Source of the DNA: an uncultured Candidatus Saccharibacteria bacterium | Lineage (GTDB): Bacteria > Patescibacteriota > WWE3 > UBA101185 > UBA10185 | Assembly: GCA_964387275.1 (NCBI GenBank) | Contig: CAYLVW010000002.1 | Location: forward strand, 127,286 to 191,285 | DNA: 64,000 bases | Direction of reading: 5' to 3' | Part shown: one piece after another, positions 2,206 to 57,949 of the stretch | Position numbering within the stretch: position 1 is the first letter of the stretch | Layout of the letters: every line of letters starts with the position of its first letter | Position numbers and translations under genes: made by a program | Notes under the pieces: generated by a model | Told to the model about the DNA's origin: nothing | Seen by the model: the letters and a program-made list of their open reading frames with translations, nothing else | Database searches by the model: none

Positions 2206-2354
2206 GAGTCCTCCATATACTCTTTGGTGATCTAAGTTTTCAACGTTCTGAGGTTTCCCTCAATGAACCTACGAGACCTTCTCGTTGGCTCAATAAAGGG
2301 GAGCTGGTGTGTAACGCGTAGCGTGGAACACCAGCTCTTCCCTCTCCTTAATTC

Positions 2355-3931: not shown

Positions 3932-4823
3932 AACCCTGCTCCGCCTGAGTATTGTAGAGATAAATTACAGCAGCAATAGCAATAACCCCGTAGGTCAAAA
4001 GCTGCATATCATTGACAGCAGTACTAATAGTCACGCCAATAGCCAAAATATCGTAAAAGAAAGGAATATCAAAGTTGCTCCTCATATTATTCATAACTTC
4101 AATGCCATTAGCCTTACCAATACCAACACCAACGGCAAGGATAATCAGAAAAATTAGAAAAGCCCCAAACATAGTGCTAAACACCCACCCCTTAATCTGC
4201 TCACGAGCAGCATACAAAGCAAGACCCAAACCAAGGGTAAGAACAACGGGAAATTGGCTAGTAATAAAATTCCAAAAACCAAAGTTAAGAAAAACCATCA
4301 ATCCAAAAACTACAGCCATCAAAATCCCTCCAATAGTGAGCAAATCTCTAAACTCGTAGCGACCATCAAAAAGCCCGGCAATGCTGTCTACAACTGTTCT
4401 GTACATCTTCCGTGGATTACGGAAGAACATAAACAAAAAGACAACCCCAACCAGAAAAATCCAAAAACCCAGATCAACAAAGTTATTCTGAGCAAAATTG
4501 GAAGCACTGGAAAAATAGACACTAAGAGTATCAAGATCTCCAGCATTAAAAGGCAAAAATGCCCAAACGGCATTATAGGTTTCACTGGCACTTCTAGCCC
4601 AAAGACCTACATACTTAGCGGCCAAATCACCAACTTCAGCATTACCCCCAGATACAAATTGAGCAGAATCTTTTGCCCCATTAATAGCAAGGGGGCCACA
4701 AGAGTTAAGTGACAAGCCACAAGCAAAAAATAGGAACGTAAAGGGTACGACAATCCTATAAATCAAATTCCATGCAGCTTTCATTACAGTTTCTCCCTGT
4801 TTTTTGTGGTGTTCAGTTTTCAA
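3873..4823 (-). CDS. Hypothetical polytopic membrane protein (5-6 TM helices); weak resemblance to VirB6/TrbL-type proteins
   Basis: 316-aa ORF rich in TM helices. First gene of the minus-strand operon 4823->94, preceded by a 405-nt AT-rich leader (4824..5228). Confidence 0.4.
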   Translation of the reverse strand: MKTEHHKKQGETVMKAAWNLIYRIVVPFTFLFFACGLSLNSCGPLAINGAKDSAQFVSGGNAEVGDLAAKYVGLWARSASETYNAVWAFLPFNAGDLDTLSVYFSSASNFAQNNFVDLGFWIFLVGVVFLFMFFRNPRKMYRTVVDSIAGLFDGRYEFRDLLTIGGILMAVVFGLMVFLNFGFWNFITSQFPVVLTLGLGLALYAAREQIKGWVFSTMFGAFLIFLIILAVGVGIGKANGIEVMNNMRSNFDIPFFYDILAIGVTISTAVNDMQLLTYGVIAIAAVIYLYNTQAEQGFGSGPAVPQKKAEGGHRGK

Positions 4824-26119: not shown

Positions 26120-26794
26120 ATGGAAATCTTGCTAAATTTATTATTACCCCAAAAATGTGTTGTTTGTGGTTCTATCAGCGACTCCATTTGTACAGAGTGT
26201 TTGTTGAAAACCAAACCCTTAGAAGGGGTTATTTATTACGATTTAGAAACTAACAAATTTATAGATAAGAAAAACACAAAAGAAAATATGCTTATAAATT
26301 TTATGTTTAATTACTCTGATGTTGTGAGAGATGTGATTTTAAAATCTAAGTATTCTCCAAAAAGCTTTAATGCTTTAAAAAAATTACTTTGTTACTACTA
26401 CAAAACACACAATTATTTACTTAATGACTGTATATTAGTACCCGTTCCTTTGAGTTCTCCTAAATATAGGGAAAGGGGTTTTAATCAATCTCTACTTATC
26501 GCTAATTATTTAAAAAACCTATATAGGGGTATTTCAGTATCAGATATTTTAGTGAGGGGAAGGGACACTACGGCTCAATTTAAAAATAGTAGGAATGAGC
26601 GTTTTAAGAATATTAGGGGTTCTATCAAAGTTTCAAAACATATTCCACCAAGTATGAAGACTTGCAAAGTTTGTATAGTAGATGATATCTGTACAACAGG
26701 ATCTACATTATCTGAGTGTTACAAAATACTTCAAAAAGTGGGATTTAGCCAGATCTTTTGTGTCTGTGTTTGTAGGTCTGTAGAGAGATTTTAA
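26120..26794 (+). CDS. comFC: ComF-family protein (ComFC-like phosphoribosyltransferase with N-terminal zinc finger)
   Basis: N-terminal CVVCGS...CTEC zinc finger; C-terminal PRTase motif VCIVDDICTTGSTL. Confidence 0.7.
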   Translation: MEILLNLLLPQKCVVCGSISDSICTECLLKTKPLEGVIYYDLETNKFIDKKNTKENMLINFMFNYSDVVRDVILKSKYSPKSFNALKKLLCYYYKTHNYLLNDCILVPVPLSSPKYRERGFNQSLLIANYLKNLYRGISVSDILVRGRDTTAQFKNSRNERFKNIRGSIKVSKHIPPSMKTCKVCIVDDICTTGSTLSECYKILQKVGFSQIFCVCVCRSVERF

Positions 26795-38546: not shown

Positions 38547-41474
38547 TTAGCTCTCCGTTATCTCTTCAGGTTGGTTTGTTAAAACTCTAATTTGCGATTC
38601 ATTGAATAATGATGATGCTTTGTCAGTATATTTTTCTATAACATCGGCACCAATTCCTGATTCTTTTAGGCTTAATAAATGTTGATAAAATCTCTCAACT
38701 AGTTGTGGATCATCTGCTCCCTTAGTTTTATGGGACATTTCTAGTAATTTCAACTTATGCTCTCCTGATATCTGTTCTTTTTTATCATAAAAGCTAGTCA
38801 GTATTTGTTTGTTATTATTAAATTTATAGTTTCTATCCTCAGCAATAATTATGGCGTTATCTAAGTGATTAGAACTTATAAGCCTTTCTATAATGATGTC
38901 TTTAATGGCTTCATCAAAATGTTCCTTCATGAGATTGTAGATTTCCAAAGACCTTATCGAGGCACTCAAAACATTTTCACTGTTTTTTGTAACGACTTCT
39001 TTTCTCTCTTCCTCATCGAATAAAGCATAGCCTGTTGCATAGTCTGCATCAGAAGCAAAATTAGTAAATATGGATGCCTCTAATTCGTTTGCTCTTGAAT
39101 TATGCGGATAGAGAGATATTAGTCTTGCTAATCGGTAGATATCTTTTTTTTCATTCCAAACACCTGCTTGTTTATAAAATGTGCCTATTGTTAAGGTTAA
39201 GTTTTCCATTTGCGGTTGTAGTACCACATCTAAAGTTGGGACAATCCCTTTAAAGTTCTTAAGTATCTCATATGCAAATACGATCAACAGTTTCCTTTGC
39301 TCTCTCATAGGGTTGCTAGATTCTGTAGAAAAGATTTCATCAATCTTCCTAATAAATGTTTCAATAGATTTTTTATCAAAAATCTCTAAGAACTTTTTGA
39401 TGATTTGTATCTTATTTTCGAGTAAGGATATATCATCTATGTCGGTGTTTTTAATCCCTGCAATGAATTTAATCAATGTGTCCTCGAGTATAAACTCTCT
39501 CCTATCGGAATTATCTGCAAAGATTTCTAAGTACTCAGTTTGATAGTAAGCATTATTCAGTAAGTTCCTGATTTCACTTAAATATAGTTTAAAATAATCT
39601 TTGTTTGTGGAAATATATTGGAATATGTCTACAGCATTATCTTTCGTTATAGTAGGTTCCTTATCAGGTTCTTTTGCTCTGAGTATGTCAACATATTTTG
39701 CTGCTAAAAGGTTGTTTTGGTTTGGATTAATATTATTTTTTATTGTATCGACCGTTGGTTTGATTCTAAAGTTAGGATATGTGGCTAGATTATCTAGAGC
39801 CTTAATTATGGCGTGGTAAAGCTCATTAGCTAAACGATTGTTAACATTAACAGTTTCATCTCTGTAAAAAATTTCAATACAGCACGAACTTACAGGTTCA
39901 TATCGAGTCTTTTCACCCGCTGTTCTGTTTTGCTTAACATATTCGGCAGCCAATTCAAGGAAAATGTCCAAATTCTCCTCTTTTACAAAAGATTTGAATA
40001 ACTTCTCAGCACTTTCAACATCTCTATCTTGTGCAAAGGTTATAAATTGATCCCATCCATTTAGTCTTTTTTCTTCTGCAGATTGCTTAAACGTAATAAA
40101 CAATACTAGGTTTGAGCCATACGGAACTATAGACTCAGTATCTACAAGAAACTTTTCGCCTCTTTCATTAATTATTCCGTTATCATTTTTTGCATCTTCA
40201 ACAAAACTATTCCATGAGGTGGCTTCATATAATGCTTTCTCTTTTAACTTTGCATAAGTTGCAGGGAACTTCTCTTTGATAACTAACAGTTTAGCAATGA
40301 AAGCAATATTATTTTGATCTGCGATAAAGTTAAGGTCTTCAATATTGCCTTTTGCTATTCTGCTTTGCACAAGTAGTAGTTCTGCAATTAAGTTGTTTAT
40401 AAACTGTTTTATTTCCCTAGGGCTATTTCTGTAGGAGCTTGTAATAACTGATACTAGTTGAGAGTTGTTTTGAAGTAGTGGGAATTTTGAATTCTCAATT
40501 TGTTTTGTAACAAAATGGTCAAATTCCAAACTGTATGGTTTAGGAATTCTCAAAGTCAAATTAAAGAATTTTTTCAGATACTCGTTTGCATAGTCGTTTT
40601 GTTTTGTAGAATCTTTGTTATTTCCAAGGTAAACCTGTTCTATGTGTTCCTTTATAGCCTCTTCATCACAAGGTATTAGAAATACACAGTTATTTTCTCC
40701 TAAAAAAGTTTTTATCGTTGTAAGAAATGCTGACGCTTTGTGGTGAGCAGTTCTGTCTAGGTTGTCTAGTATAAATAATATCTTCTTATTTCGTAGCCTT
40801 TTATCTGAAATCAATTTTTTGAATTCCTTTTCGAATTCATCGGGCAATGATAGTTTGTCTTTTGTTAGAGTAATTTCATCCACTACCAAAACTTTATGTG
40901 GTAAGTCAATTAATATTGGTTTGAGTAAATGTAACTCTAGTACAGATAGTGCCCCCGAAATTAGTGTTATTAGTCCCCAATTATCAGCATTTTTAAAAAA
41001 GTAATTAAAAATTAATATTACAATTACTAGAGTTAGAACAAAAAATGGTGTGAGTAAGTATAGGCTTCTTACTAACTCATGTGAACGGAACTTGATCCCG
41101 ATATCCTCTTTTTTCTCGATTGAATAGGCAAATGCTTTACTAAGTTCTTTGGCTTTTTTTTCTCCCAAAAGTTCAGTAGCCGCTGTTAGTAAAAATTGTC
41201 TTCTTAAGGAGTCATTCTCATACTTCCATACGTCAAAGTACACGACTTTTATATCTGAATTCCTTAGCTTATCCTCGATAAGCTTGGCTATTATTGTTTT
41301 GCCTGTACCCCATTTACTAAATAATCCTATGGTAAATGGAGGCTTTGCTGAAGATACTATTTTCACTAATGTATCTGCTACTTCCTCATGCCCAAAATCT
41401 ATATCTGTTAATGAAGGATCATCGGGTAATAGTTCAAAGTCTATTGTATTCTCATTGCTGTTGGATTTTTTCAT
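38547..41474 (-). CDS. KAP-family P-loop NTPase with TM helices inserted in the NTPase domain, plus a ~700-aa C-terminal helical extension
   Basis: Walker A GLFSKWGTGKT; KAP-signature YFDVWKYEND; two hydrophobic helices (LYLLTPFFVLTLVIVILIF..., LITLISGALSVL) between Walker A and B; Walker B ILFILDNLDR followed by a conserved Cys-containing segment. Confidence 0.8.
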   Translation of the reverse strand: MKKSNSNENTIDFELLPDDPSLTDIDFGHEEVADTLVKIVSSAKPPFTIGLFSKWGTGKTIIAKLIEDKLRNSDIKVVYFDVWKYENDSLRRQFLLTAATELLGEKKAKELSKAFAYSIEKKEDIGIKFRSHELVRSLYLLTPFFVLTLVIVILIFNYFFKNADNWGLITLISGALSVLELHLLKPILIDLPHKVLVVDEITLTKDKLSLPDEFEKEFKKLISDKRLRNKKILFILDNLDRTAHHKASAFLTTIKTFLGENNCVFLIPCDEEAIKEHIEQVYLGNNKDSTKQNDYANEYLKKFFNLTLRIPKPYSLEFDHFVTKQIENSKFPLLQNNSQLVSVITSSYRNSPREIKQFINNLIAELLLVQSRIAKGNIEDLNFIADQNNIAFIAKLLVIKEKFPATYAKLKEKALYEATSWNSFVEDAKNDNGIINERGEKFLVDTESIVPYGSNLVLFITFKQSAEEKRLNGWDQFITFAQDRDVESAEKLFKSFVKEENLDIFLELAAEYVKQNRTAGEKTRYEPVSSCCIEIFYRDETVNVNNRLANELYHAIIKALDNLATYPNFRIKPTVDTIKNNINPNQNNLLAAKYVDILRAKEPDKEPTITKDNAVDIFQYISTNKDYFKLYLSEIRNLLNNAYYQTEYLEIFADNSDRREFILEDTLIKFIAGIKNTDIDDISLLENKIQIIKKFLEIFDKKSIETFIRKIDEIFSTESSNPMREQRKLLIVFAYEILKNFKGIVPTLDVVLQPQMENLTLTIGTFYKQAGVWNEKKDIYRLARLISLYPHNSRANELEASIFTNFASDADYATGYALFDEEERKEVVTKNSENVLSASIRSLEIYNLMKEHFDEAIKDIIIERLISSNHLDNAIIIAEDRNYKFNNNKQILTSFYDKKEQISGEHKLKLLEMSHKTKGADDPQLVERFYQHLLSLKESGIGADVIEKYTDKASSLFNESQIRVLTNQPEEITES

Positions 41475-41984: not shown

Positions 41985-42424
41985 TAAGACAAAGGAAAGC
42001 CATTCAAAAATTATCTGAAAACCTACGAAATGTAGATAATAAACCTATTTCTATGGGAAAAATTTTACGAGAGTCAGGTTATTCAGAGGCAGTATCAAAG
42101 AAACCGAAGCTAGTTACAGAAAGCTTAGGGTGGAAAGACCTCATAGAGTCCTACCTTCCTGACGAAAAACTGTTACAAAGCCTTGTAGAGATGCTAAACA
42201 TGCCTTCTATTACTACTGTCCGTAACGACAAAGGTAAAGTGATTAGAGAAGTCACTGAAACAAATGGGTCAATCAAGGCTAGAGGGTTGGATATGATTTT
42301 GAAAGTAAAAGGTAAGTATGTAGCGGAAAAGGTAATAACAGAAGATCCTTATGCAGACATGAGTGACTCTGAAATAGAGGCTAAGATCAACAGATTGCAT
42401 CAGGAACGCAACTCATTTAATTAG
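41975..42424 (+). CDS. Phage terminase small-subunit-like HTH protein
   Basis: N-terminus RQRKAIQKLSENLRNVDNKPISMGKILRESGYSEAVSKKP follows the terminase-small pattern (...kq..f...y.......a...AGYS..tA...). Confidence 0.35.
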   Translation: MSTIRQRKAIQKLSENLRNVDNKPISMGKILRESGYSEAVSKKPKLVTESLGWKDLIESYLPDEKLLQSLVEMLNMPSITTVRNDKGKVIREVTETNGSIKARGLDMILKVKGKYVAEKVITEDPYADMSDSEIEAKINRLHQERNSFN

Positions 42425-42964
42425 GTTATAGTTCTTGTACACATTTTCCCAATAGCCTGAAAGTTTATTTAGAAACATGGAAACTATGTCTGTGGCAATT
42501 GGATTTATAAAAAATGGCTTATCCTTTGTTCCCTTTATCAGTATTTTATCAATGTTTTTACCTAGCCATTGATTGAGAAGTATTATTGCAACTCCCTCGA
42601 GTCCTTTTTGGCGGTTACCACCGTTTTCATATGCTTCCAAGTAATCTATAACTTCTTTTACTGCATAATTCTCAGTACTCTCGGTTCTTAGACCACTCAT
42701 TATATGAAGGGCTAGTCTTTTACTTTGCTCCTGAGGAAAAAAGCTTTCTACTGAGGCTATTCCTAAAGCAATAAGAGCAAAGCTTAAGTTTAAAGCACAA
42801 AGGTTATCATCAAGGAAAACAAAGTTGTTGTTGTAAAAATTATTTTGAAAGTGTTTCTTTATTTCTAGCCATGCTTTGTCACTTCCTTTTACACAATCTA
42901 ATACAAAAGAAGCGGACGCTACTTTTTCATCTAGATTTTTCTTAGATACCAAAAAATTAAGCAT
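42413..42964 (-). CDS. Hypothetical protein
   Basis: 183-aa ORF. Confidence 0.35.
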   Translation of the reverse strand: MLNFLVSKKNLDEKVASASFVLDCVKGSDKAWLEIKKHFQNNFYNNNFVFLDDNLCALNLSFALIALGIASVESFFPQEQSKRLALHIMSGLRTESTENYAVKEVIDYLEAYENGGNRQKGLEGVAIILLNQWLGKNIDKILIKGTKDKPFFINPIATDIVSMFLNKLSGYWENVYKNYNLIK

Positions 42965-43192
42965 ATTTACATTTCCATAGTTAGGGGATTAGCAAAACAA
43001 TAAGAGCTCCCCACTAGTCTGAACCCTTTCGGGCTCACATAATCGTTTCCGACTATGACCTGATCAAGTAACTAAATGGAGAGCTTCCATTTCTTGATCA
43101 GGTTTTATCGCCATGCCTTAGACGAATCTAAAGTTTAGGCAACATTAAGTTGTGTGCTTATTTTACTACAGAATGCTTTAGAATAAAGAAGT

Positions 43193-43846
43193 ATGAAGGA
43201 TAGATATGGAAAAATGATGAAAATAGTATATACGCCTGATTTCAAGAAATGGCTTGATAAATGGAAAGCTTTTGTATCTAGTAAAAACATTCCTAGCAAA
43301 AAAGATTTACCTAACAAGTGCGAAAGTGAGTTATTAACTTTGCTTAAATCTCACAATATCGGCTATTCATGGAAAGACCCGCTGATAAATTCCCTGTTTC
43401 TTGAATTACTTGATTTACCGTTGGATGATGGTATTCACATAGAAGTAGGCGGTACGGCGATTACAGAAGTGTCTTTAACAGCTAAAACTTTTGTGGTTGA
43501 TGAGGGTAGAAAATTGGAAGGTGTGCGTATTGTTATTACTAAGGATATATCCCCTCATGAACTTAGTAGTTTCATTAAAAAATACCAAACGTTGTTACAT
43601 GGACTTTATAAGCACTTAGGATTACCTGCTTCTGTGAAAGAGGGTTATGATGTGAACATCGTTAATGCCATAGTGACTATGCGGGATAAAAAGAAAATGA
43701 AATTCAAAGATATTGCTACGTTTCTATACGACGCATATTCAGAGCAGGAAAAACCCAAACAATCCCTCGAAAGATTTAATGAAACTAATGTTCAGAAAAT
43801 ATACAGCGATTTTAAGAAGTCCCTACCAAAAACCAACAAAAAGTGA
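43193..43846 (+). CDS. Hypothetical protein
   Basis: 217-aa ORF. Confidence 0.4.
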   Translation: MKDRYGKMMKIVYTPDFKKWLDKWKAFVSSKNIPSKKDLPNKCESELLTLLKSHNIGYSWKDPLINSLFLELLDLPLDDGIHIEVGGTAITEVSLTAKTFVVDEGRKLEGVRIVITKDISPHELSSFIKKYQTLLHGLYKHLGLPASVKEGYDVNIVNAIVTMRDKKKMKFKDIATFLYDAYSEQEKPKQSLERFNETNVQKIYSDFKKSLPKTNKK

Positions 43847-43898
43847 ACTGCTTTTTGTTGTGTAGTTAACAACATCTTGCACATAACATTGCATCAAT

Positions 43899-44162
43899 AT
43901 GAAAGATGCAATGGAAATCACACAGAAAAATATTCCCGTTTCAGACTTAGGTTTAGTAGCTGCCCTGTCCTTGTCATTCCAATATGAAGCTTATAGGCAA
44001 CCAAACGACGCAAAAGTTTATTTCCTATTTGAAAATGTACTCTCGGTAAGGAAAGCTATCGAGGACTATTGGGAAGGAAATCTTATAGTTAGTGCTAGGG
44101 CTTATTCGGAACAGCTTAAAAACACTAAATCTAAGATTTATGGTGGAGCATGGAGAAACTAA
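43899..44162 (+). CDS. Hypothetical small protein
   Basis: 87-aa ORF. Confidence 0.3.
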   Translation: MKDAMEITQKNIPVSDLGLVAALSLSFQYEAYRQPNDAKVYFLFENVLSVRKAIEDYWEGNLIVSARAYSEQLKNTKSKIYGGAWRN

Positions 44163-44294
44163 GCAAAAATGCAATAGTTTCATATAGATCCATATATCAA
44201 AAAAAGTATGGTGTGTTACTACCTTTTGAAGTAGCGAGAACACAAGCTGAAAATTTATTAACCTTTCTATTTCTTAAAGCCAAGTTGAATGTAA

Positions 44295-44768
44295 ATGAAT
44301 ATGTACGAGAACCTAAAAACACCCAATAACATTAAAGAATACCCATTTACACCTATACCGCATGTGATTTTGGATGTACTTATAGCAGATAAGAGGTTTG
44401 ATAAAAATTGCCAAAAGGTCTTATTACTTATAATTCGGCTGACGTACGGTATTGACCTCAAAAAAAAGAGAAGGGGTAGGTGGGCAGATATACGTAAAAG
44501 CCAATTTAGAGCCTGTGGTATTTCCTCAACGCATATAGATCCAATTTTAGAAAAACTTCTCGCTATGGAGGTGATTAGAAAAGAACCGCCAAATTATTAT
44601 TCGATAAATGTAGATACCTTTGAAAGTTCTTTAGAGGGCTATCTGCTGTCAGATTTGTTGTGTCTGCATATTAGTCAACCGAAAGCAACTGCGGATACAT
44701 CTAGTGAAAGGCTTATAAACTTGAGTTCCCAAAATGGTATCTATTTAGAGAAGTCAGATGTGGGATAA
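44295..44768 (+). CDS. Phage replication-organiser-like protein (lambda RepO N-terminal-like winged helix)
   Basis: KVLLLIIRLTYGIDLKKKRRGRWADIRKSQFRACGISSTHIDPILEKLLAMEVIRKE parallels the Phage_rep_O N-terminal pattern (vLlaIirkTyG....w..is.sq.ae.tGls...v.ra...L...gli). Confidence 0.45.
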   Translation: MNMYENLKTPNNIKEYPFTPIPHVILDVLIADKRFDKNCQKVLLLIIRLTYGIDLKKKRRGRWADIRKSQFRACGISSTHIDPILEKLLAMEVIRKEPPNYYSINVDTFESSLEGYLLSDLLCLHISQPKATADTSSERLINLSSQNGIYLEKSDVG

Positions 44769-44907
44769 ATGTAATATTGTCAGTCAGAAATAGGTGTCGA
44801 TCCTGTTACTAAAGAAAGAAATAAATAAAAAAATAAATAAATCAAAAAAAAGTGGAAACAGTCCAACAATATTTGAACTTTTGTATTCTTTAGTATTTAA
44901 TTAATCT

Positions 44908-44985
44908 GATAACCACAATACATTAAAGTCAGGAATGACCGTTCTGTCATGCCTTTAATGGTGTGGTTATCAACAGAACGGTCAT
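44908..44985. repeat. Nested inverted repeats directly upstream of the serine recombinase start
   Basis: gataaccaca (44908-44917) / tgtggttatc (44962-44971); cattaaag / ctttaatg; aatgaccgttctg (44934-44946) / cagaacggtcatt (44973-44985). Confidence 0.6.
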
Positions 44986-46624
44986 TTTTATGCAAAGATC
45001 TAACAACAAGTATTTCTTATATGTGCGAAAGTCGTCAGAGTCCGAAGATAAACAAGTTCTTTCTATCGATTCTCAAATAAATGAACTAACAGAATTAGCT
45101 AGAAGACTTGGTTTGGATATTGTTGAAATCTTTAAGGAAACCAAGTCAGCCAAAGCCCCCGGAAGACCCGTATTTAATGAAATGATAGAAAGACTTAAAA
45201 GAGAGCATGTAGCAGGGATTCTATGTTGGAAAGTGGATAGGTTAGCGCGAAATCCTGTAGATGGAGGAACAATCATTTGGGCTATTAAGGAAGATGGTAT
45301 TTCTATAGTCTCATCATCTCAAACCTATACCCCCGACTCTGATACAAGCCTTTTGATGTATGTAGAGTTTGGCATGGCTCAAAAGTATGTCGATGATTTA
45401 TCTAAAAATGTCAAAAGAGGATTGAAGATGAAACTAGAACTTGGATGGTATCCTTTTGTCGCTCCCCAAGGCTATCTTAACACTCCCGATAGGCAAAAAG
45501 GATACAAAATTATAGTTAATGATTCTGAACGCTTTCACTTGGTAAGAAAGATGTGGGATTTAATTCTCACGGGGAGTTATACAGTGCCTCAAATACTTTT
45601 TATCGCAAACAACGAGTGGGGGTATAGAAGCATCAAGCGAAGGAGGAGTGGCGGAAATCCAATTTCTAGAAGCTGTCTTTACGAAGTTTTTACTAACCCT
45701 TTCTATTATGGTGAATTTGAAGTGAATGGAACTTTTTACAAAGGTAGTCACAGTGCAATGATAAGTTATGAGGAGTTTGAAAAGGTTCAAGTGCTCTTGG
45801 GACGTAAGGGAAAACCACGTCCGCAAAAGCACCTTTCGGCTTTTACGGGGTTTTTAAGATGCAGTGAATGTAACTGTTTTGTAACAGCAACTCACAAAGC
45901 TAAATTTTATGAGAAGACCAAAAATTTAGCTCACTACGATTACTACCATTGCACAAGAAAGAACAAATCTGTGAAATGCACTCAACCAACTGTAAAAGAG
46001 TCTGATATGGATAACCAAATGTTTGAATTACTTATGAGTGTCAGGGTTGACCCTGCATTCAAAGATTGGGCACTTACATACCTCTCAGAAATATTCAAAT
46101 ATGAAAATAAGAATAATGAGCAAGTACATGAAAACTTATATAAAGAGGAAAAAGCCATCAAATTTAGGTTAAATACTCTGTTTGAAATGCGTTTGAATGG
46201 AGAGGTTACGGAAGATGAATACAAAGAAAAGAAAGTCGAACTAGAGGCGACTCTCAAGTTTTGTAGGGAGAAAATAGGTGATTCTAACCATCAATTTGAC
46301 TCTTGGTTAAAGAAAGTAGAGGAAGCATTTAATACTGCTGAAAGAATACAAAAGGTGGTCGACGATAGTGGTAATTTGAGTCTGTCAAAAACAAACCATA
46401 CAAAGCTTTTAGAAATCAAAGAACTAATCCAACGAACAGGCTCGAACTTCTTCTTAAACTATGGGAAAGTGCAGTATGAACTGAAAAAACCCTTTTATGT
46501 ATTCAAAGATGTTTCAGATGGAAAGTATACTGATACAAGTCGGCTAGAACCTTTAGAATATGCTGATATGGTAATGAAAAGTGGACTTGAAAAACCTGAA
46601 AGTCTTTCATGGCTCCTCCGGTAG
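44963..46624 (+). CDS. Large serine recombinase (resolvase catalytic domain, recombinase domain and zinc-ribbon domain); probable true start at the ATG at 44990
   Basis: YVRKSSESEDKQ (catalytic Ser region), ...ILCWKVDRLARN, Cys cluster CSECNC...YYHCTRK, coiled-coil C-terminus; 553 aa. Confidence 0.85.
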   Translation: MVINRTVIFMQRSNNKYFLYVRKSSESEDKQVLSIDSQINELTELARRLGLDIVEIFKETKSAKAPGRPVFNEMIERLKREHVAGILCWKVDRLARNPVDGGTIIWAIKEDGISIVSSSQTYTPDSDTSLLMYVEFGMAQKYVDDLSKNVKRGLKMKLELGWYPFVAPQGYLNTPDRQKGYKIIVNDSERFHLVRKMWDLILTGSYTVPQILFIANNEWGYRSIKRRRSGGNPISRSCLYEVFTNPFYYGEFEVNGTFYKGSHSAMISYEEFEKVQVLLGRKGKPRPQKHLSAFTGFLRCSECNCFVTATHKAKFYEKTKNLAHYDYYHCTRKNKSVKCTQPTVKESDMDNQMFELLMSVRVDPAFKDWALTYLSEIFKYENKNNEQVHENLYKEEKAIKFRLNTLFEMRLNGEVTEDEYKEKKVELEATLKFCREKIGDSNHQFDSWLKKVEEAFNTAERIQKVVDDSGNLSLSKTNHTKLLEIKELIQRTGSNFFLNYGKVQYELKKPFYVFKDVSDGKYTDTSRLEPLEYADMVMKSGLEKPESLSWLLR

Positions 46625-46684
46625 GATTCGAACCTACAACCTCGAAGTTAACAGCTTCTTGCTCTACCATTGAGCTACAGAGGA
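46610..46684 (-). tRNA. tRNA-Asn (anticodon GUU)
   Basis: Reverse complement tcctctgtagctcaatggtagagcaagaagctgttaacttcgaggttgtaggttcgaatcctaccggaggagcca. Acceptor 7 bp (one G-U), D-arm gctc/gagc, anticodon loop cuGUUaa, T-arm gtagg-ttcgaat-cctac, encoded CCA. Confidence 0.8.
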
Positions 46685-46812: not shown

Positions 46813-47295
46813 TTGTTGACTACGTTTGGTTATAATCATTCCAGCAATCTTTTCAAGGAGAGAGAGATCGTGCCAAAGTTTTTGAAGGCTGCTGGGATGG
46901 CTTTATTTTTACTGATTTGTGGTATCACTTATTCTGAAGGTTTTGAACTGTCTCTTAGTAATCCGGAGTCAGTTAATTTAAACGCTTTGATTATTCTGAA
47001 TATCTTAGTGATATCTCTTATGCTTTTGGGATCTTACGCCTATGGAATCAAAATACGAGTCTTGTTATATGTGATAGCTATTTCCTTTGGCGTGCTTTTT
47101 GGTACTTCTTTTATTGGGCAGTTTTATGGCATGTATGTAAACTCTAATGTAAGGGTTTTGATAATCGAGGGCGGTTATTTGGGGTATTTTTTGGCTATGT
47201 TTAGTACTTTATTGCTATACATTCTTCCTTATTTAGTTGCTGTACTAAGTGTGTTTGCTGTTTACGATAGTACTTATAGGGCTGTTTCTGTTTAA
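46813..47295 (+). CDS. Hypothetical membrane protein (4-5 TM)
   Basis: 160-aa hydrophobic ORF. Confidence 0.4.
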   Translation: MLTTFGYNHSSNLFKEREIVPKFLKAAGMALFLLICGITYSEGFELSLSNPESVNLNALIILNILVISLMLLGSYAYGIKIRVLLYVIAISFGVLFGTSFIGQFYGMYVNSNVRVLIIEGGYLGYFLAMFSTLLLYILPYLVAVLSVFAVYDSTYRAVSV

Positions 47296-48227
47296 AGGTT
47301 TTGGGTCTGTTGCACTTCTGTGTTTTTGTGTGTCAGACCCTTTTTGTTTAGTTTGTATATTACAAAAATAGCAAGACCAATATTTATTACAAATAAGATA
47401 CTTTGGTAGTTTGGGACGTTTGGCTTAAGTATGATAATGAAACTTTCTAGAATATACGGAAGAGTTGTTGTATGGAGAACTATCTTTAAAGTGTCCATGA
47501 ATGAGTAACCAGTCTTAATAACCGAAGAGATTATGAAGACTACCACCGCACTAAACAAAGCATCTAGAAATTTTATAGATATATAAAAAACAAAACTTAT
47601 TCCAAGTACAACGAACAAACCTACAGTAGGTATGATGTAAGTTAATTTTTTTAGATTTTGGATTTTTTCTTCTACTTTATTTTTGTCCAACATAAAATCA
47701 GGAACATTCCTTGTTGGTCTGGTTTGTATTTTTGATGGGTCTTTCACAAGAATATTGGTTGAGTTTATTAGAATCATGGTATTGTACTTTTCCATGTCAT
47801 CAATAGTGCCTTTCTTATCAAACACTATTAAGTTATCAGGGAATTTCGTATTTTGCTCAGTCTCATACGACAGACCAGATTCTTTTATATAATCAGGCGT
47901 TTTTATTATGTAGGGGTCCTCCATGTTTGTTGTGATAACCCCATCCACAGATGTTATTACCAGGCTATCCGGATAAAATTTTGACACTTCCTGTAATGTG
48001 AGGTTAATTTTGTCGGTTATTCTATTTGCATCAAATGCCATGAAAGACCCTGCATATATGAATGCAATAATCATGCTTAATCCAACAAAATATTTATATG
48101 AGAAGCTAAATTTTGTTTCTAATATCTCGCTATAGTAGTCTACTGATACTAAGCTTTTTTTGAACGAATAAAGTAATGCCTTTATGTATTTCATATATGG
48201 TATGAGAGTCCATGTGCTATAAGGCAC
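47292..48227 (-). CDS. Hypothetical membrane protein with a large extracytoplasmic domain between TM helices (DUF1189-like topology)
   Basis: 311 aa: N-terminal TM, ~150-aa soluble domain, C-terminal TM bundle. Confidence 0.35.
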   Translation of the reverse strand: MPYSTWTLIPYMKYIKALLYSFKKSLVSVDYYSEILETKFSFSYKYFVGLSMIIAFIYAGSFMAFDANRITDKINLTLQEVSKFYPDSLVITSVDGVITTNMEDPYIIKTPDYIKESGLSYETEQNTKFPDNLIVFDKKGTIDDMEKYNTMILINSTNILVKDPSKIQTRPTRNVPDFMLDKNKVEEKIQNLKKLTYIIPTVGLFVVLGISFVFYISIKFLDALFSAVVVFIISSVIKTGYSFMDTLKIVLHTTTLPYILESFIIILKPNVPNYQSILFVINIGLAIFVIYKLNKKGLTHKNTEVQQTQNL

Positions 48228-48384
48228 ATATCTTCTCCAATTTCTTTGCAGTGGTATCTAAGCTTACCTCCAAAATTGTATAACTGCCTGTTTAACTTTA
48301 TTATATCCTATAAACTGTAGGGCGCAGGCAATAGGTTGATTGTAACATGTCTGATATAATTTTTTTGTTGATGTTAAGGATTTT

Positions 48385-51300
48385 ATGCTGAACTTTCGTT
48401 TGAAGTTCATACCACTCGCTGTGTTTATAATAACGGCTTTTTCAGTCGTGTTTCCCCGTGTAACTTTCGCTGCTTACGATGTTGCATGCGTTGCTGAAGG
48501 GGTTGCTGACTATATGGATGGAGTTCTAAGTCGTGCCACTCCTGGTAAGTTTAAAAACATTAGGTTTTTGACTCCAGCATTTAATATGACAGAGCCTCAG
48601 TTTGAAGAATTAGTCAGCGAGATTTCTGCTCTGTCCGGCACTTTTGCCAGATCAGATGTGGTAGTTAGTGGTAATGCTTACAATGTGGATGGGGCAAGTG
48701 TAGTTGATTGGATGGAAAGGGTACGTTCTACAGAAATTGCTAATAGGCCTGTTATCCTTACTGAGACCGGTTGGTATCCGCATGCAGCAGGCCAGGGTTA
48801 CACAAATGAGCGCGGTGAATCCTTACGTGATGCTTTGAACCAGGCTCGTAGCTCTCAAGGCCCTCTCGTTGGTGCTTTAATTTTTAACGGCTTTGGTACA
48901 AATCCTGATATTAATTTTGCAGGTCAGGTAATGAGTAATGAACAATTCAATGTTGTTTGTAACAGCGGAGCATGTGGTTTTATTGGCGTAAATTCTGCTG
49001 CAGGATTATTTGATAATTCTAATAATGATAGAGCTGCCGGCCTTGGAATGAAGATGACACTGGGGATTATAAATAATGATCCATCAGGGGTTGCCAGTGG
49101 TTCTAATAACGCATTAGCTAAAGGTATTACCCCAGTTCTTAGAATCGGTGTTGGAGATTCTAGCGGTGGTTTCGACACACCAGCAGCTCTATATAGTTTT
49201 ATGGAAGGATTGGACCCATTGTTAACCGGTGTTGTTTACATCATAGTAGGTCCTAACGAGCCTAATGCAGAGGGTTGGGCTGATCCTGACGGCCCTGGTA
49301 CTTGTGACAGGGACCAGCCAGATACCGGAGGCACTGCCGGATTTGTAACTGTAAGAGGAATGTTAAGAGCCATGAAAGGAACCCGAACTTTAAATGACGG
49401 TACTACCGCTCCTGTGACAAATCTTGGTGTTAAGAATGCGGCAATAAAAATTTATGAAGGTGTTCCTGATAGTCAAACTGGGAAGAGAAGGGGGGATTTA
49501 GTGAATCCTCCTGATGTTGCGACTTCCGGGGTAATCAATTTGACCCGAACTGATGAAGACGGATTTTTTGAGATACAAATGAGGCGTGGAAGTGGTAGAA
49601 ATAGAATGAATTACTTAGTAGTTTTTTGTCAAAATACAGGCACCCCTTCAGATAATATAACTACAATTTATGCATTAGATTCTACAAAAAATCTCGACGG
49701 ACTTATGCTTTATGAAGATTGTCCTCAGGATGTAACTACCCCAGATCCTCCCGATGAACTTCCTTACGTGTCACAAACAGATTTCTTATCTTGTGATCTC
49801 CCTAGTGTCGGAGATGAATTGTACAATTTATACAAAGGCTTTAACCAAGTTGCAAAAGGTTTGAGAACTTTTATTAATCTTGACGGTGTTACTGATGGTT
49901 GGTGGGTTGGTAAGGATTTGGATACTGTTCCAAATCCAAATGATGGTGTTCGTCAAGATGAAGAACTTACGCATGCCGAGATTGATGGGAGATATAACAC
50001 AAATCAATTTGCTTTTGATGTGAACTCCATATATGGGGCGTTAACATGTTTGACTGTGGGTTGTTTAGATGGTGATCAAGTGTTGAAAAGAGGTAATGGT
50101 GGTGTATTGCCATCATGTGATGTTTACAGAACTGGAAACGAAGCTTTAAACGCAAGGAATATGTATGGATTTGCAGAAAGTTTAGCTTCTCCAAGTTTTG
50201 GTATTCAAAGTGACGATGTAAAAAGATACATTTCTGTACGTCTTGACGGTACTTTAAGAAATAGAGAGATTTGTAATATTGATGGCCATAATTATACTTT
50301 TAGAGAATTTGCTATACCAACACAGTGGAATCAGGATGAAATTGCAGCTGCTATAGGAGATCATGTGTGTAGTGAGGGTGAACTTTTTTGTTTACCAGAA
50401 GAATACTTCCCTTGGAATAAATTAATCAATTTTTATAACGAATCTTTAGAGGCAGATACCAGGACAACAACCGAGAGGGATTCCTTTAACTCAGTTGAAA
50501 GGGATCGCGTTTTTGATGAAGCTAACAAGGGTTTGGCTCTAAGCTGTGACGGTCCTACTACGGATGAGGGTGCTTGTGCTACACCACCAAAAGCTTTTGC
50601 AGGCAGGGATGCTGTAGTATTACCAAAAGGCAATTTAACTTCCCCAATTGCGGCTGCAAATTCTGTTACCAGAGGAGCAAAAACTCCCGGAGTTGCTTCT
50701 CCCCTGGAGCTTATTTATGACCCAAAAACTGATGAAGATGAACAAAGCCTGGCAGAGGGAAAAATTACAAAGAAATTTACTACAGTTAGCTCTAGCAGTA
50801 GGGGTATCCTACGAATTGGTAAACCAAAATCTCTTTGTATTTGTCCTTGGCCCCTTAGAATCTTGGATTTATGCGGTAGTGCTACAAACGATCAACTTAT
50901 GAACTTTTTTGATACTAGTGTTACAGGGTATCTAGACACTTCTGCAAATTCATTAAGAACCTTTTTATACGGTGCTGGCTATTCTTATGTAACTAAGAAT
51001 ACCCTTGTCTCCGTAGGTACCGACAGTTTGGGTCAGTTTTTTGGTTACAACGTAGATATACTTACCGCAATTGTGCAGCAGATTTACGACAATATAATTG
51101 CACCATGGTTTGTGGGTTCTGACAGGGTGCCTTATCAGTATGGGGCTCAGTGTCAGGGTCAGTGGGTAGCAGCTTCCGAAGAGCAGGCAGCTGCATGCGC
51201 CCCTAATTGGCCTGATGACCCTGCTTGTATAACTCAAAATGGCTGCGGTGGTTGTAAATGTGTTGGTTCAAGTGCTACAACTTGCTCACAGTGGCAAGTA

Positions 51301-52431
51301 CTCGTAGATGATTATACTTGTTCGCCCTCTGTAGATGTACCACCAATTGACCCAGAGGTCTCTACCTCCATTCCACTTAGAAATCTAACTAATGCAGCGG
51401 GTAATTTTATGGCTGCCTTTAGAGGTCCTATAGATCCAAACCCAAGAATCCGAGATGCTGCTGCGGTTGGCACTGAAGCTACTGGTGTTACTACTACTAA
51501 TCAGGCGAAGGGTAACGATTTAAGTCTGGGGGAAAGTATTGTTGATTATTGGGATCAGTTGTCTCAATCTGTTTCTGATCCTAATTTTTCAAATAAGTTA
51601 TTTACATGGCGTAAGGTAATCAGAAATAGAGCGGCGCCTATAGCAATGCCTACAATAGAAGATACCATGTGTCAATTTGGTACCAACGATTCCTACAGAA
51701 GTATTCCAAACCTTCCAGATAATCTTATTGAGGTGTTAGAGGTAGCCGGAGATGCCTATCATGTACCTGCTCCACTTATACTCTCGTATATGTATGCAGA
51801 GGGTAGTTTTAACCCCACCTCCTCCAATCCCTTAAATGGCATGTGGACTGAGGATAATGTAGATTCTTGGATCAACGAAGGCATGGAAGAGATAAACGGT
51901 GGGGAGTACTGTGATCCTAATTCGGCTTCTCCGAATAATCCCTACAACCTAATCAGATCCAACTGGGATGCAGGATTAGGAAATGCTGTTTTGATAGACT
52001 TTCCAAATAGATCCCCTAACATATGTAATTTCTTAGATCAGACATATGCTGTCGCTCAGCTTATTTCCCGGATGAGTTATGTGGTCACAGAAGATCCTAT
52101 TTGTTTTGGGATTAATCTTGGTGAAGGGCTTCCTTGGCCAACTTCTTGCTCTGATTGGACAAAACAAAGACTAGTTATCGCTGCTAAAGATTACACAGCC
52201 TATGGTTATTGTTATGATAATATCGAGAGTGGATTTAGAGGTTCCGGGTGGAAAGAAGGGGACAGGCAAACCTTTGATCAGTGTTTCCCAAATACTAACA
52301 GTTGCAGGACAGTGTCTCTAAATGACCCCAATATACCAGATGCTAGTTACATTTTTAATGTTATAGATGTGTTTTGGCACTATACTCTCCCATCAATGCG
52401 TAACAGGATTTTAGGTTATACGTACCCATAG
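48385..52431 (+). CDS. Giant secreted cysteine-rich multidomain protein; N-terminal glycoside-hydrolase-like (clan GH-A-like) domain, possible lysozyme/transglycosylase-like segment near the C-terminus
   Basis: 1348 aa. Signal peptide MLNFRLKFIPLAVFIITAFSVVFPRVTFA. VILTETGWYPHAAG resembles the catalytic-nucleophile motif (ETGW) of GH-A enzymes such as GH17. Dozens of Cys. The segment YAEGSFNP...GMWTE is weakly SLT-like. G+C visibly higher than neighbours. Confidence 0.65.
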   Translation: MLNFRLKFIPLAVFIITAFSVVFPRVTFAAYDVACVAEGVADYMDGVLSRATPGKFKNIRFLTPAFNMTEPQFEELVSEISALSGTFARSDVVVSGNAYNVDGASVVDWMERVRSTEIANRPVILTETGWYPHAAGQGYTNERGESLRDALNQARSSQGPLVGALIFNGFGTNPDINFAGQVMSNEQFNVVCNSGACGFIGVNSAAGLFDNSNNDRAAGLGMKMTLGIINNDPSGVASGSNNALAKGITPVLRIGVGDSSGGFDTPAALYSFMEGLDPLLTGVVYIIVGPNEPNAEGWADPDGPGTCDRDQPDTGGTAGFVTVRGMLRAMKGTRTLNDGTTAPVTNLGVKNAAIKIYEGVPDSQTGKRRGDLVNPPDVATSGVINLTRTDEDGFFEIQMRRGSGRNRMNYLVVFCQNTGTPSDNITTIYALDSTKNLDGLMLYEDCPQDVTTPDPPDELPYVSQTDFLSCDLPSVGDELYNLYKGFNQVAKGLRTFINLDGVTDGWWVGKDLDTVPNPNDGVRQDEELTHAEIDGRYNTNQFAFDVNSIYGALTCLTVGCLDGDQVLKRGNGGVLPSCDVYRTGNEALNARNMYGFAESLASPSFGIQSDDVKRYISVRLDGTLRNREICNIDGHNYTFREFAIPTQWNQDEIAAAIGDHVCSEGELFCLPEEYFPWNKLINFYNESLEADTRTTTERDSFNSVERDRVFDEANKGLALSCDGPTTDEGACATPPKAFAGRDAVVLPKGNLTSPIAAANSVTRGAKTPGVASPLELIYDPKTDEDEQSLAEGKITKKFTTVSSSSRGILRIGKPKSLCICPWPLRILDLCGSATNDQLMNFFDTSVTGYLDTSANSLRTFLYGAGYSYVTKNTLVSVGTDSLGQFFGYNVDILTAIVQQIYDNIIAPWFVGSDRVPYQYGAQCQGQWVAASEEQAAACAPNWPDDPACITQNGCGGCKCVGSSATTCSQWQVLVDDYTCSPSVDVPPIDPEVSTSIPLRNLTNAAGNFMAAFRGPIDPNPRIRDAAAVGTEATGVTTTNQAKGNDLSLGESIVDYWDQLSQSVSDPNFSNKLFTWRKVIRNRAAPIAMPTIEDTMCQFGTNDSYRSIPNLPDNLIEVLEVAGDAYHVPAPLILSYMYAEGSFNPTSSNPLNGMWTEDNVDSWINEGMEEINGGEYCDPNSASPNNPYNLIRSNWDAGLGNAVLIDFPNRSPNICNFLDQTYAVAQLISRMSYVVTEDPICFGINLGEGLPWPTSCSDWTKQRLVIAAKDYTAYGYCYDNIESGFRGSGWKEGDRQTFDQCFPNTNSCRTVSLNDPNIPDASYIFNVIDVFWHYTLPSMRNRILGYTYP

Positions 52432-52473
52432 TTACTTTTTGACAACTAATAACATATAGATTATGATCTATAT

Positions 52474-57873: not shown

Positions 57874-57949
57874 GGGTGTTTAGCTCAGCTGGTAGAGCAG
57901 GCGTCTTATACACGCCCGGTCCTTGGTTCGAGTCCAAGAACACCCACCA
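57874..57949 (+). tRNA. tRNA-Ile with anticodon UAU (tRNA-Ile2 type)
   Basis: gggtgtttagctcagctggtagagcaggcgtcttatacacgcccggtccttggttcgagtccaagaacacccacca. 7-bp acceptor, D-loop with GG, anticodon stem ggcgt/acgcc, loop cuUAUac, T-arm cttgg-ttcgagt-ccaag, encoded CCA. Confidence 0.8.

Follow-up and report, generated by a model that had tools for sequence, protein, structure and literature searches.

A secreted, cysteine-rich Patescibacterial protein with a circularly permuted barrel, probably of clan GH-A type, and a candidate role as an envelope hydrolase

Glycoside hydrolase (GH) family 128 belongs to clan GH-A and consists of triose-phosphate isomerase (TIM) barrels with two catalytic glutamates (PMC13413497). 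It is the described family to which the amino-terminal barrel of the protein treated here appears closest. This protein, the query below, is encoded at 48385..52431 on the forward strand of a 64-kb stretch of DNA (64,000 nucleotides; hereafter the window) from an uncultured Candidatus Saccharibacteria bacterium. In the open reading frame (ORF) listing of the window, the gene is complete, starts with ATG and encodes 1348 amino acids (aa) followed by a stop codon. GH128 enzymes, represented in Pfam by PF11790 (Glyco_hydro_cc, GH128-like), resemble the family of barrels to which the query belongs. Both are compact (β/α)8 barrels of about 250–300 aa with an Asn-Glu acid/base after β4 and a nucleophilic Glu ending β7, and both are secreted and contain disulfides. 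GH128 differs from the query and from 109 of 152 family representatives in chain order, which in the latter runs from β5–β8 to β1–β4. It also differs from the family as a whole, which has its own invariant motifs, sits in multidomain proteins of 500–2300 aa and is found almost only in Patescibacteria. The GH53 galactanases, GH26 lichenases and mannanases, and GH5, GH1 and GH30 enzymes likewise share the fold and the 4/7 catalytic topology with the family, but at 10–16% identity, with template modelling (TM) scores of 0.5–0.65, and the order is permuted in the query.

That the catalytic barrel of GH70 is permuted with respect to that of GH13 is established knowledge, and the family described here resembles GH70 in that a catalytic TIM barrel has been circularly permuted in nature inside one clan. 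In the GH70 glucansucrases, the (β/α)8 barrel is circularly permuted relative to GH13 of clan GH-H (PMC6274110). GH70 enzymes differ in belonging to clan GH-H and acting on α-glucans, and their permutation divides two families, whereas at least four break points occur inside the single family considered here.

For the carboxy-terminal domain of the query (C-domain), the nearest described system is Slt35/MltB, the family-3 lytic transglycosylases (Pfam SLT_2). The catalytic-Glu helix 'VP..IL..I..vE(G/T)', the motif G-x-M-G-x-x-Q-F and the helix that follows can be aligned. Unlike Slt35/MltB, the query lacks GPMQF, and the C-domain has eight conserved cysteines and a carboxy-terminal extension of about 100 aa.

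Type IV secretion systems (T4SSs) provide the third comparison. Patescibacteria carry arrays of 2–11 VirB2-like pilins, most of their genomes lack VirB1, and other glycosidases have been suggested to fill its role (PMC12102498). In Southlakia, transposon sequencing identified the T4SS and the VirB2-like pilins as essential for epibiotic growth (PMC10633639). PrgK of pCF10 and TraG of pIP501, from monoderm T4SSs, resemble the query in being large and secreted and in joining a domain of lytic-transglycosylase or lysozyme type to a second hydrolase domain (PMC12102498). In these proteins, the second domain is of the CHAP, NlpC/P60 or LytM type instead of a GH-A-type barrel, and the query locus, unlike theirs, is without T4SS genes. 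A further resemblance is that members of the barrel family are encoded inside T4SS-type pilin operons, where local opening of the wall would fit.

Taken as a whole, the gene is best explained as a vertically inherited, fast-evolving gene of a probable Patescibacterium (Candidate Phyla Radiation). Its product would be an extracellular glycan hydrolase in three parts, exported by Sec and stabilised by disulfides, with a barrel related to clan GH-A and closest to GH128/Glyco_hydro_cc. We consider this explanation, which draws on sequence comparisons and predicted models, somewhat better than an even chance.

The permuted barrel and its family

When the full protein was compared with Pfam, NCBIfam and the sequences of the Protein Data Bank (PDB), no match was found at E≤10. 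The AlphaFold2 (AF2) model of aa ~30–310, built from an alignment of eight sequences, is a (β/α)8 barrel with eight strands and eight helices (predicted local distance difference test, pLDDT, 82.4; predicted TM score, pTM, 0.85). The fold expected of a GH-A member is thus present in the predicted model of the query. The parts of the barrel, all on the forward strand, are as follows.

48472..48957, forward: barrel half A, aa 30–191, topological β5–β8 (AF2 model and motif positions)
48763..48765, forward: codon of E127, predicted nucleophile at the end of topological β7 (98% conserved)
48958..48975, forward: permutation junction C192-N-S-G-A-C197 (both Cys invariant)
48976..49305, forward: barrel half B, aa 198–307, topological β1–β4 (AF2 model and motif positions)
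49258..49260, forward: codon of E292 in the NEP motif that follows topological β4, predicted general acid/base (99% conserved)

Half A contains the motifs TPAFN (63–67), GNAYN (96–100), LTETGW (125–130) and IFNGFG (166–171) together with the conserved C35, and half B contains IGVNSA (200–205), LRIGVG (252–257), GGFD (261–264) and GPNEPN (289–294) together with the conserved C307. Asn-Glu-Pro is the classical acid/base motif of clan GH-A. In the query, GPNEPN follows the eighth strand of the chain, which is β4 in canonical-order relatives. Similarly, E127 lies at the end of model strand 96–101 (numbered by domain), the counterpart of β7 in canonical-order members, and corresponds to E226 of the domain of family member P0010. 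The query barrel therefore runs from β5–β8 (TETG, E127) to β1–β4 (NEP, E292) instead of following the canonical order from β1 to β8, and in BLAST comparison with P0007 the two halves align in swapped order. The junction C192/C197 joins what are the carboxy and amino termini of canonical-order members; in P0010, the equivalent residues, C22 and C293, are located near the amino and carboxy termini of the domain. C35 and C307 stand at the new termini created by the permutation. The pairs C35/C307 and C192/C197 probably staple the new and the old termini.

Conservation and chain order were counted over the 152 best family representatives, with order assigned by half-domain hidden Markov models (HMMs). 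R253, N291 and E292 are conserved at 0.99, N67, Y99, E127 and W298 at 0.98, N97 at 0.97 and N203 at 0.95. This near-invariant GH-A constellation argues for an active enzyme.

A sequence-only reading of the same DNA had proposed a GH-A-like amino terminus around the motif VILTETGWYPHAAG, which was indeed found at aa 123–136. At the level of the family the proposal is borne out, and the TETGW glutamate that had attracted attention is predicted to be the nucleophile. GPNEPN with E292, as a second catalytic motif, and the circular permutation go beyond it. Structure prediction, which the same reading had suggested as a check, gave a barrel for this part of the protein. The Foldseek neighbours of the query model in the PDB are generic TIM barrels. 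The 28 matches, including phosphoenolpyruvate mutase, ornithine decarboxylase and BHMT, have E-values of ~1e-4 and TM scores of 0.3–0.5 and are uninformative on the clan. Generic matches of this kind are expected if the chain order is permuted.

The relationship to clan GH-A was seen in other members of the family. PF11790 is the only Pfam family that was matched significantly by barrel-family members; it was matched by 5/19 canonical-order members (best E = 9e-8), and PF00150 (GH5) by 1/19. P0076 aligns to positions 70–226 of the 237 positions of the PF11790 profile. P0008 scores 24.9 bits, above the gathering threshold of 21 bits, and its match spans the barrel half that carries E127. When the halves of seven relatives were re-joined in canonical order, a Pfam match was obtained for P0008 only. 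The AF2 model of P0010, a canonical-order protein from a Dojkabacteria metagenome-assembled genome (MAG), has a pLDDT of 90.7 and a pTM of 0.89. Its Foldseek search against the PDB gave 177 matches at E≤1e-3, with GH53, GH26 lichenases, GH1, GH128, GH5 and GH30 at the top (1ur0, GH53, 4e-7; 2bv9; 1np2; 5xrc; 3kl3). The closest structural neighbours of this canonical-order model are thus clan GH-A enzymes. The GH128 structure 6uav shows 19% identity, the highest among the structural matches, with a TM score of 0.64. In a viral structure library, GH5-annotated proteins were on top (E = 1.3e-7). Judged by these profile matches, the family is related to PF11790 but the query is not a member of it.

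Word-indexed searching of 5.8 billion proteins recovered only eight relatives, which share aa ~30–320. The same type of search with the barrel alignment added only two proteins, and with the C-domain alignment no homologs were found. The family became visible only when an HMM was run exhaustively against 1.84 billion cluster representatives, which gave 350 members at E≤1e-3, 219 of them at E≤1e-30; these ~350 family representatives stand for clusters at 50% identity. The chain orders among the 152 best representatives were the following.

β5–8 then β1–4 (the order of the query): 109/152 (72%)
β1–8 (canonical): 29/152
β8, β1–4, β5–7: 7/152
β3–8, β1–2: 6/152
A-B-B: 1/152, unresolved

Each permutation form has its own signal peptide directly before the barrel and a complete set of motifs. 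P0010, P0038/P0033 and P0077/P0075 are examples of these forms, with conserved Cys pairs at the junctions. The invariant motifs of the family are IGVNSA, RIGVG, GGF, SPAFN and GNAYN. In its multidomain proteins of 500–2300 aa, the barrel co-occurs with SLT_3 lysozyme-like, Peptidase_C39_2, Peptidase_C70, GDSL and β-helix domains. Many members carry a further conserved module after the barrel (P0033 from aa ~305–330 onward, P0005, P0008), recognisable by PEFHSLRPYPASPC ... PI(M)GNT ... YVSWYLNG ... GPLxKLLP ... NPGD and absent from the query. A Pfam match for this module of P0033, P0005 and P0008 was not found.

A scan of GTDB species representatives identified 34 loci, almost all in Patescibacteria, with Saccharibacteria, WWE3, Woesebacteria, Dojkabacteria/WS6, Microgenomates, Gottesmanbacteria and Paceibacterota among the taxa. 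MAGs labelled 'uncultured Gammaproteobacteria', 'Pseudomonadales' (third-party annotation) and 'Limisphaerales' show the same pilin-array architecture as loci of Woesebacteria and Microgenomates (L009, L010, L012, L013, L017, L018, L020, L024, L025, L028, L029, L030, L031 and L037). Because this architecture equals that of the Woesebacteria loci, the taxonomic labels of these MAG records look unreliable.

Relative to the libraries and papers searched, the barrel family is new in four respects: searches of Pfam, NCBIfam and PDB sequences fail to recognise it, its dominant form is permuted, it comprises four permutation forms, and its genes have a conserved location directly after the pilin arrays of Patescibacteria. 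The literature searched contained no description of a permuted barrel from clan GH-A.

Export, cysteines and the carboxy-terminal domain

Beyond the barrel, the gene and its product can be divided as follows, again on the forward strand.

48352–48360, forward: putative extended -10 element TGATATAAT (read from sequence)
48376–48380, forward: putative Shine-Dalgarno sequence AAGGA, 4 nt 5' of the ATG (read from sequence)
48385..48471, forward: Sec-type signal peptide, aa 1–29, with predicted cleavage between TFA and AYD (charge and hydrophobicity analysis)
49321..51636, forward: middle region, aa 313–1084 (~770 aa), 22 Cys, no recognisable family
51637..52428, forward: C-terminal domain, aa 1085–1348, probably lysozyme-like, eight conserved Cys (profile comparisons)
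51799..51801, forward: codon of E1139 (YAEGSFNP), predicted catalytic Glu, invariant in the domain alignment

An extended -10 element and a Shine-Dalgarno sequence of its own seem to precede the gene; in a consensus promoter scan upstream of it, a full -35/-10 pair was not found. The same kind of scan identified a strong promoter-like site (11/12 matches) at 52439–52467, between the gene and the downstream helix-turn-helix (HTH) and suf genes. The gene is probably monocistronic.

All the features listed in the sequence-only reading were found in place. The clear signal peptide it described has an n-region, MLNFRLKF, with two basic residues, an h-region at residues 9–23 with a mean Kyte-Doolittle value of 2.59, and the cleavage site after residue 29. 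Homologs have equivalent amino termini, and a scan of the rest of the protein for hydrophobic segments found none. The many cysteines it had remarked on number 34, equal to 2.5% of residues; in the other 44 ORFs of the window, pooled, the share is 0.74% (binomial p = 1.6e-9). Barrel, middle region and C-domain hold 4, 22 and 8 of the 34. All 34 are kept in a 64%-identical ortholog, and 20/34 are kept across four proteins that are ~30–64% identical to the query. These properties fit an extracellular, disulfide-bonded protein, and the earlier description of a secreted, cysteine-rich product is backed by both the signal peptide and the conservation of Cys. The only ORF of the window richer in Cys encodes 224 aa at 26120–26794 on the forward strand (5.8% Cys). 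No paralog of the gene was found in the 64-kb window.

The middle region is common only to P0002, P0003, P0043 and P0057, and in part to P0004. Its profile gave only chance-level matches in the PDB and Pfam (riboflavin-binding protein, ANP32A, HAD_2). Its first ~100 aa may form a β-sandwich, with a hint of a CarboxypepD_reg-like domain that is not significant.

The C-domain is a mobile module. Iterative HMM searching found it in 14/152 barrel-family proteins, and in P0006 it is amino-terminal. E1139, in the stretch YAEGSFNP (aa 1137–1144) that precedes GMWTE (aa 1152), is invariant in 13 domain sequences and aligns with the catalytic-Glu region of MltC, Slt35/MltB and SltB. These lytic transglycosylases made up 6/6 and 4/5 of the weak matches in two PDB profile searches (E = 0.02–1; best E 0.022–0.035). 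The alignments lie on the catalytic-Glu helix and, in members that retain it, also on the GxMGxxQF motif. Pfam SLT_2, SLT and SLT_4 are weakly matched by some members, with SLT_2 reaching E = 1.1e-3 and matched by 3/8 members; the C-domain of the query gave no match to SLT_2. A sub-profile of the GPMQ-bearing members, without the query, aligned with Escherichia coli MltB in HHalign over 100 columns at 82.5% (pairwise E = 1e-5). In distant relatives of the domain, the second motif is present as GPMQF, GMMQM or GAMQL. The weakly SLT-like stretch that the sequence-only reading had pointed to is thus probably part of a real lytic-transglycosylase-like domain, given its conserved Glu and the MltC/Slt35/SltB-type matches. 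On these comparisons a lysozyme-like fold is likely for the C-domain, and activity as a lytic transglycosylase is uncertain.

Pilin operons, synteny and the surrounding chromosome

Gene neighbourhoods were compared by clustering the neighbouring ORFs of 36 barrel loci. In 22 of these, the barrel gene stands beside genes of the T4SS_pilin family, which encode small proteins with two transmembrane segments (Pfam PF18895, 29.5 bits against a cutoff of 26.6 bits). About 14 of the 22 have tandem arrays of 7–11 pilin genes directly upstream on the same strand, and in 17 loci a polytopic membrane protein of 540–610 aa is encoded immediately downstream of the barrel gene. No Pfam match was found for this membrane protein, which is possibly a VirB6 analogue. 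The operon, on one strand, encodes 7–11 VirB2-like pilins, then a barrel-family protein of ~1000–1700 aa, then the polytopic membrane protein, and sometimes a protein of ~270 aa is encoded on the opposite strand between the last two genes. It occurs in L010, L012, L015, L018, L021, L023, L024, L028, L029, L031, L032, L034, L035 and L037. In the literature searched on Patescibacterial T4SSs, no description of this operon was found. The full-length homolog P0003 also has a T4SS_pilin gene adjacent to it. From these neighbourhoods, members of the barrel family qualify as candidates for the VirB1-like glycosidase that is missing from the T4SS of Patescibacteria. The proposed T4SS role is a family-level association and not a property established for the query copy.

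The query itself lies in a different setting, of which the conserved neighbour is

47292..48227, reverse: divergent gene for a DUF1189 membrane protein (Pfam PF06691, E = 1.4e-21)

This DUF1189 gene adjoins the barrel gene in the window and in L002, L007, L008 and L036. L002, a contig of GCA_020049755.1 that encodes the ortholog P0002 (64% identity), is collinear with the window over the 3' end of a serine-recombinase gene, tRNA-Asn, DUF1189, the gene, an HTH regulator and sufCBDS. The identities between the two are 50% for DUF1189, 64% for SufD, 73% for SufS, 85% for SufC and 94% for SufB, so that the 64% of the gene product falls inside the range of its neighbours (50–94%). The order DUF1189 (reverse), barrel protein (forward), sufC-sufB recurs in the Saccharibacteria-labelled MAGs L008 and L014, where SufC is ~69% identical. 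DUF1189 also stands beside the barrel protein in a WWE3 MAG (L007) and in L036, and L036 has a recombinase homolog upstream at the matching relative place. The gene is thus at the same position in L002, L007, L008, L014 and L036. Together with the distribution of the family, synteny with such labelled MAGs is the ground for a probable Patescibacterial origin of the window. Across the distant syntenic loci, the barrel protein is 24–32% identical compared with ~70% for adjacent housekeeping genes.

In composition, the gene has a G+C content of 0.416 against 0.352 +/- 0.030 in the other ORFs of the window (z = 2.1). G+C at third codon positions (GC3) is 0.295 against 0.285 +/- 0.039 in its neighbours (z = 0.26), and the excess is confined to codon positions 1 and 2 (GC2 z = 3.0). 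The protein contains only 2.5% Lys and 22.7% Gly+Ala+Pro, and the excess is attributed to this Lys-poor, Gly/Ala/Pro-rich composition and not to foreign codon usage. The higher local G+C noted in the sequence-only reading is therefore real overall but reflects amino-acid composition instead of codon usage. The horizontal acquisition of the gene proposed there is not borne out, given the GC3, a divergence like that of the flanking core genes and synteny that persists where SufC is ~69% identical. Likewise, the gene is near the recombinase and tRNA that had been described as adjoining it, but at a distance of 1.7 kb with two genes between. As the GC3 is native and the DUF1189-gene-suf order is kept in distant genomes, the gene reads as a resident: by these sequence comparisons it is an old positional ortholog and not recent cargo of the recombinase element.

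The rest of the window is core chromosome, with genes for aminoacyl-tRNA synthetases, DnaA, FtsH, TsaD and Suf proteins. dnaA is at 15017–16489 on the reverse strand, and the cumulative GC skew over 1–64000 is lowest near 22 kb. The replication origin therefore probably lies inside the window, with the gene ~26–32 kb from it on the leading strand. Patescibacterial T4SS genes often lie near dnaA (PMC12102498).

Other features observed in the window are given below.

94–4823, reverse: four consecutive ORFs (703, 161, 364 and 316 aa) with G+C of 0.40–0.43, Lys of 2.5–3.8% and a slightly raised GC3 of 0.33–0.35
38547–41474, reverse: KAP-family P-loop nucleoside triphosphatase, 975 aa (PF07693, E = 2.8e-31), just left of the phage-like group
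42413–46684: small phage- or plasmid-like gene group with a DUF5659 protein, a Phage_rep_O protein and a serine recombinase
43021–43141, reverse: LOOT RNA (Rfam RF03000), full length, 86.9 bits against a gathering threshold of 46.4, flanked by two small ORFs at the left end of the phage-like group
44963–46624: large serine recombinase, 553 aa, the 3' end of which overlaps tRNA-Asn by 15 nt
46610–46684, reverse: tRNA-Asn
46813–47295, forward: ORF of 160 aa with multiple transmembrane segments, between tRNA-Asn and DUF1189, absent from L002 (an indel of ~600 bp)
57874–57949, forward: tRNA-Ile with anticodon TAT (UAU), an uncommon bacterial way of reading AUA codons

The phage-like group seems long established and not newly inserted, because the recombinase 3' end and tRNA-Asn are kept in L002 (76% nucleotide identity) and L036 has a recombinase homolog at the same place. 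No Pfam match was found for the 160-aa ORF. The four ORFs at 94–4823 are unusual in composition in the same way as the gene studied here; scanned against Pfam they gave no matches, and they are possibly further secreted or surface proteins.

Competing explanations and proposed role

Several observations weigh against the explanation of the gene as a three-part, GH-A-related glycan hydrolase with a family link to T4SSs. The query, either in its native form or re-joined in canonical order, does not match PF11790 at E≤10, and searching PDB sequences with a profile of the canonical-order barrels gave 0 matches. The GH-A link is transitive, through family members and not the query, and a minority of members reach PF11790 (5/19; 2/50). 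Foldseek gave only moderate scores (best E = 4e-7, TM 0.5–0.65), non-GH TIM barrels such as sugar epimerases and old yellow enzymes appear from E ~1e-5, and the canonical-order model is that of the 31%-identical homolog P0010, not of the query. To our knowledge, peptidoglycan cleavage is not known for any clan GH-A family. In the C-domain, the sequence evidence is marginal (PDB E = 0.02–0.035), the HHalign value against MltB falls to 40% once the query is included in the profile, and the second motif is degenerate in the query (NNPYNL) and in close relatives (KNPFNF, QGPFSF). As to the T4SS, the pilin array of Southlakia ML1 is followed by Hsp20 and no barrel protein, and no T4SS_pilin or operon-neighbour proteins were found in the 64-kb window.

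Two of the rival explanations concern the origin of the gene. It could be a foreign enzyme that arrived with a serine-recombinase element at tRNA-Asn, as its raised G+C and the presence of the recombinase, Phage_rep_O and DUF5659 genes 1.7–4 kb upstream, beside the tRNA, might suggest. This is largely refuted by GC3 and synteny, and we give it very little credence. The G+C excess is only in GC1 and GC2, and the tRNA separates the gene from the recombinase, which lie on opposite sides of it. L002 carries the recombinase 3' end, tRNA-Asn, DUF1189, the gene and sufCBDS at a divergence inside the neighbour range, and the DUF1189-gene-suf order is found at ~69% SufC identity, with L036 also having the recombinase homolog. 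A phage- or prophage-derived lysin or tail-associated depolymerase, the phage-tail-like lysin of the sequence-only reading, would explain the GH5-like barrels of phage proteins at the top of the viral structure library, the combination of glycosidase and lysozyme-like domains that is typical of phage tail lysins and the small phage-like element nearby. It was rejected on gene context and the viral fold search and is just as improbable. Phage structural, holin and terminase genes are lacking around the gene, which is flanked by DUF1189 and the suf operon, and the barrel resembles viral structures no more closely than it does cellular GH-A enzymes. In addition, the Sec signal peptide, the 34 conserved Cys, the chromosomal synteny across distant genomes and the recurrence of T4SS pilins, not phage genes, beside family members all speak against a lysin.

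The other three concern function. As a nutritional exo-enzyme, the protein would be a secreted β-glycanase of the GH128, GH53 or GH26 kind that feeds a fermentative auxotroph and has no role in secretion systems or the envelope. This is consistent with the polysaccharide-degrading endo- and exo-glycanases that are the closest known relatives of the barrel, with the lack of T4SS or pilin genes at the query locus and with an ATP-binding cassette (ABC) solute-binding protein encoded elsewhere in the window. No sugar transporters, kinases or regulators are adjacent, the downstream regulator being that of the suf operon. The fusion to a probable peptidoglycan-cleaving domain and the lysozyme-like and peptidase domains of the family point to cell walls, and most family members are in pilin-array operons, so we consider a nutritional role unlikely. 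An autolysin acting on the cell's own wall in growth, division or septum splitting, with no link to a host or to secretion, is still less probable. It would suit a secreted protein with a probable lytic-transglycosylase-like domain, encoded by a single-copy, conserved chromosomal gene with old synteny near the replication-origin region (dnaA at 15–16.5 kb). However, such fast divergence, with 24–32% identity where neighbours keep ~70%, is unusual in a housekeeping autolysin, whereas surface and interaction proteins typically show it. The family is almost restricted to Patescibacteria and is usually in pilin-array operons, and GH-A barrels are not known as peptidoglycan hydrolases. Finally, the large size, abundant Cys, orphan middle region and fast evolution, and the absence of the GPMQF motif from the C-domain of the query, would be compatible with a non-catalytic surface protein (adhesin or S-layer-like) whose barrel and lysozyme-like domain are glycan-binding pseudo-enzymes. 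Both barrel glutamates and the GH-A constellation are 95–99% conserved over 152 diverse representatives and the Glu of the C-domain is invariant, which leaves this explanation a very small chance.

For the preferred explanation, a vertically inherited extracellular glycan hydrolase, we infer the catalytic mechanism, the substrate, the lytic-transglycosylase activity and the biological role as follows. In the barrel (aa ~30–310), E292 would act as general acid/base and E127 as nucleophile in a retaining double displacement on a β-glycan, most likely an envelope or secondary cell-wall polysaccharide. The middle region (aa ~313–1084) presumably serves for spacing or substrate binding, and in the C-domain (aa ~1085–1348) E1139 would cleave the glycan strands of peptidoglycan. 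Acting together, the two catalytic ends would breach an envelope, which may be that of the cell itself, to make way for a surface machine, or that of a host. In the family, the barrel would supply the wall-breaching glycosidase of the Patescibacterial T4SS or pilus, with the query as a stand-alone copy at a different conserved locus. A bolder version, which we regard as tentative and on balance doubtful, holds that the barrel is an undescribed clan GH-A-type family limited to Patescibacteria, permuted at least three times, with four coexisting chain orders, and serving after pilin arrays as the long-sought VirB1 analogue that breaches the wall or the host envelope. In this version, the query would be a stand-alone, fast-evolving paralogue, fused to a lytic-transglycosylase-like domain, that opens the host envelope in episymbiosis.

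It is plausible that the gene encodes an envelope hydrolase and possible that this is a host-envelope attack factor, for which the association of the family with T4SS pilin operons offers some indirect support. A place at the interface with a host is a reasonable proposal for this enzyme, since it joins a GH-A-type barrel to a domain that probably cleaves peptidoglycan, is secreted and diverges far faster than its housekeeping neighbours. Permuted enzymes such as those of the barrel family escape sequential profile and structure searches. With four coexisting break points, the family would lend itself to the study, in a natural setting, of how permutation of a TIM barrel is tolerated and fixed. 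For the biology of Patescibacteria, the operon of pilin array, barrel protein and membrane protein offers a concrete candidate for the absent VirB1 role.

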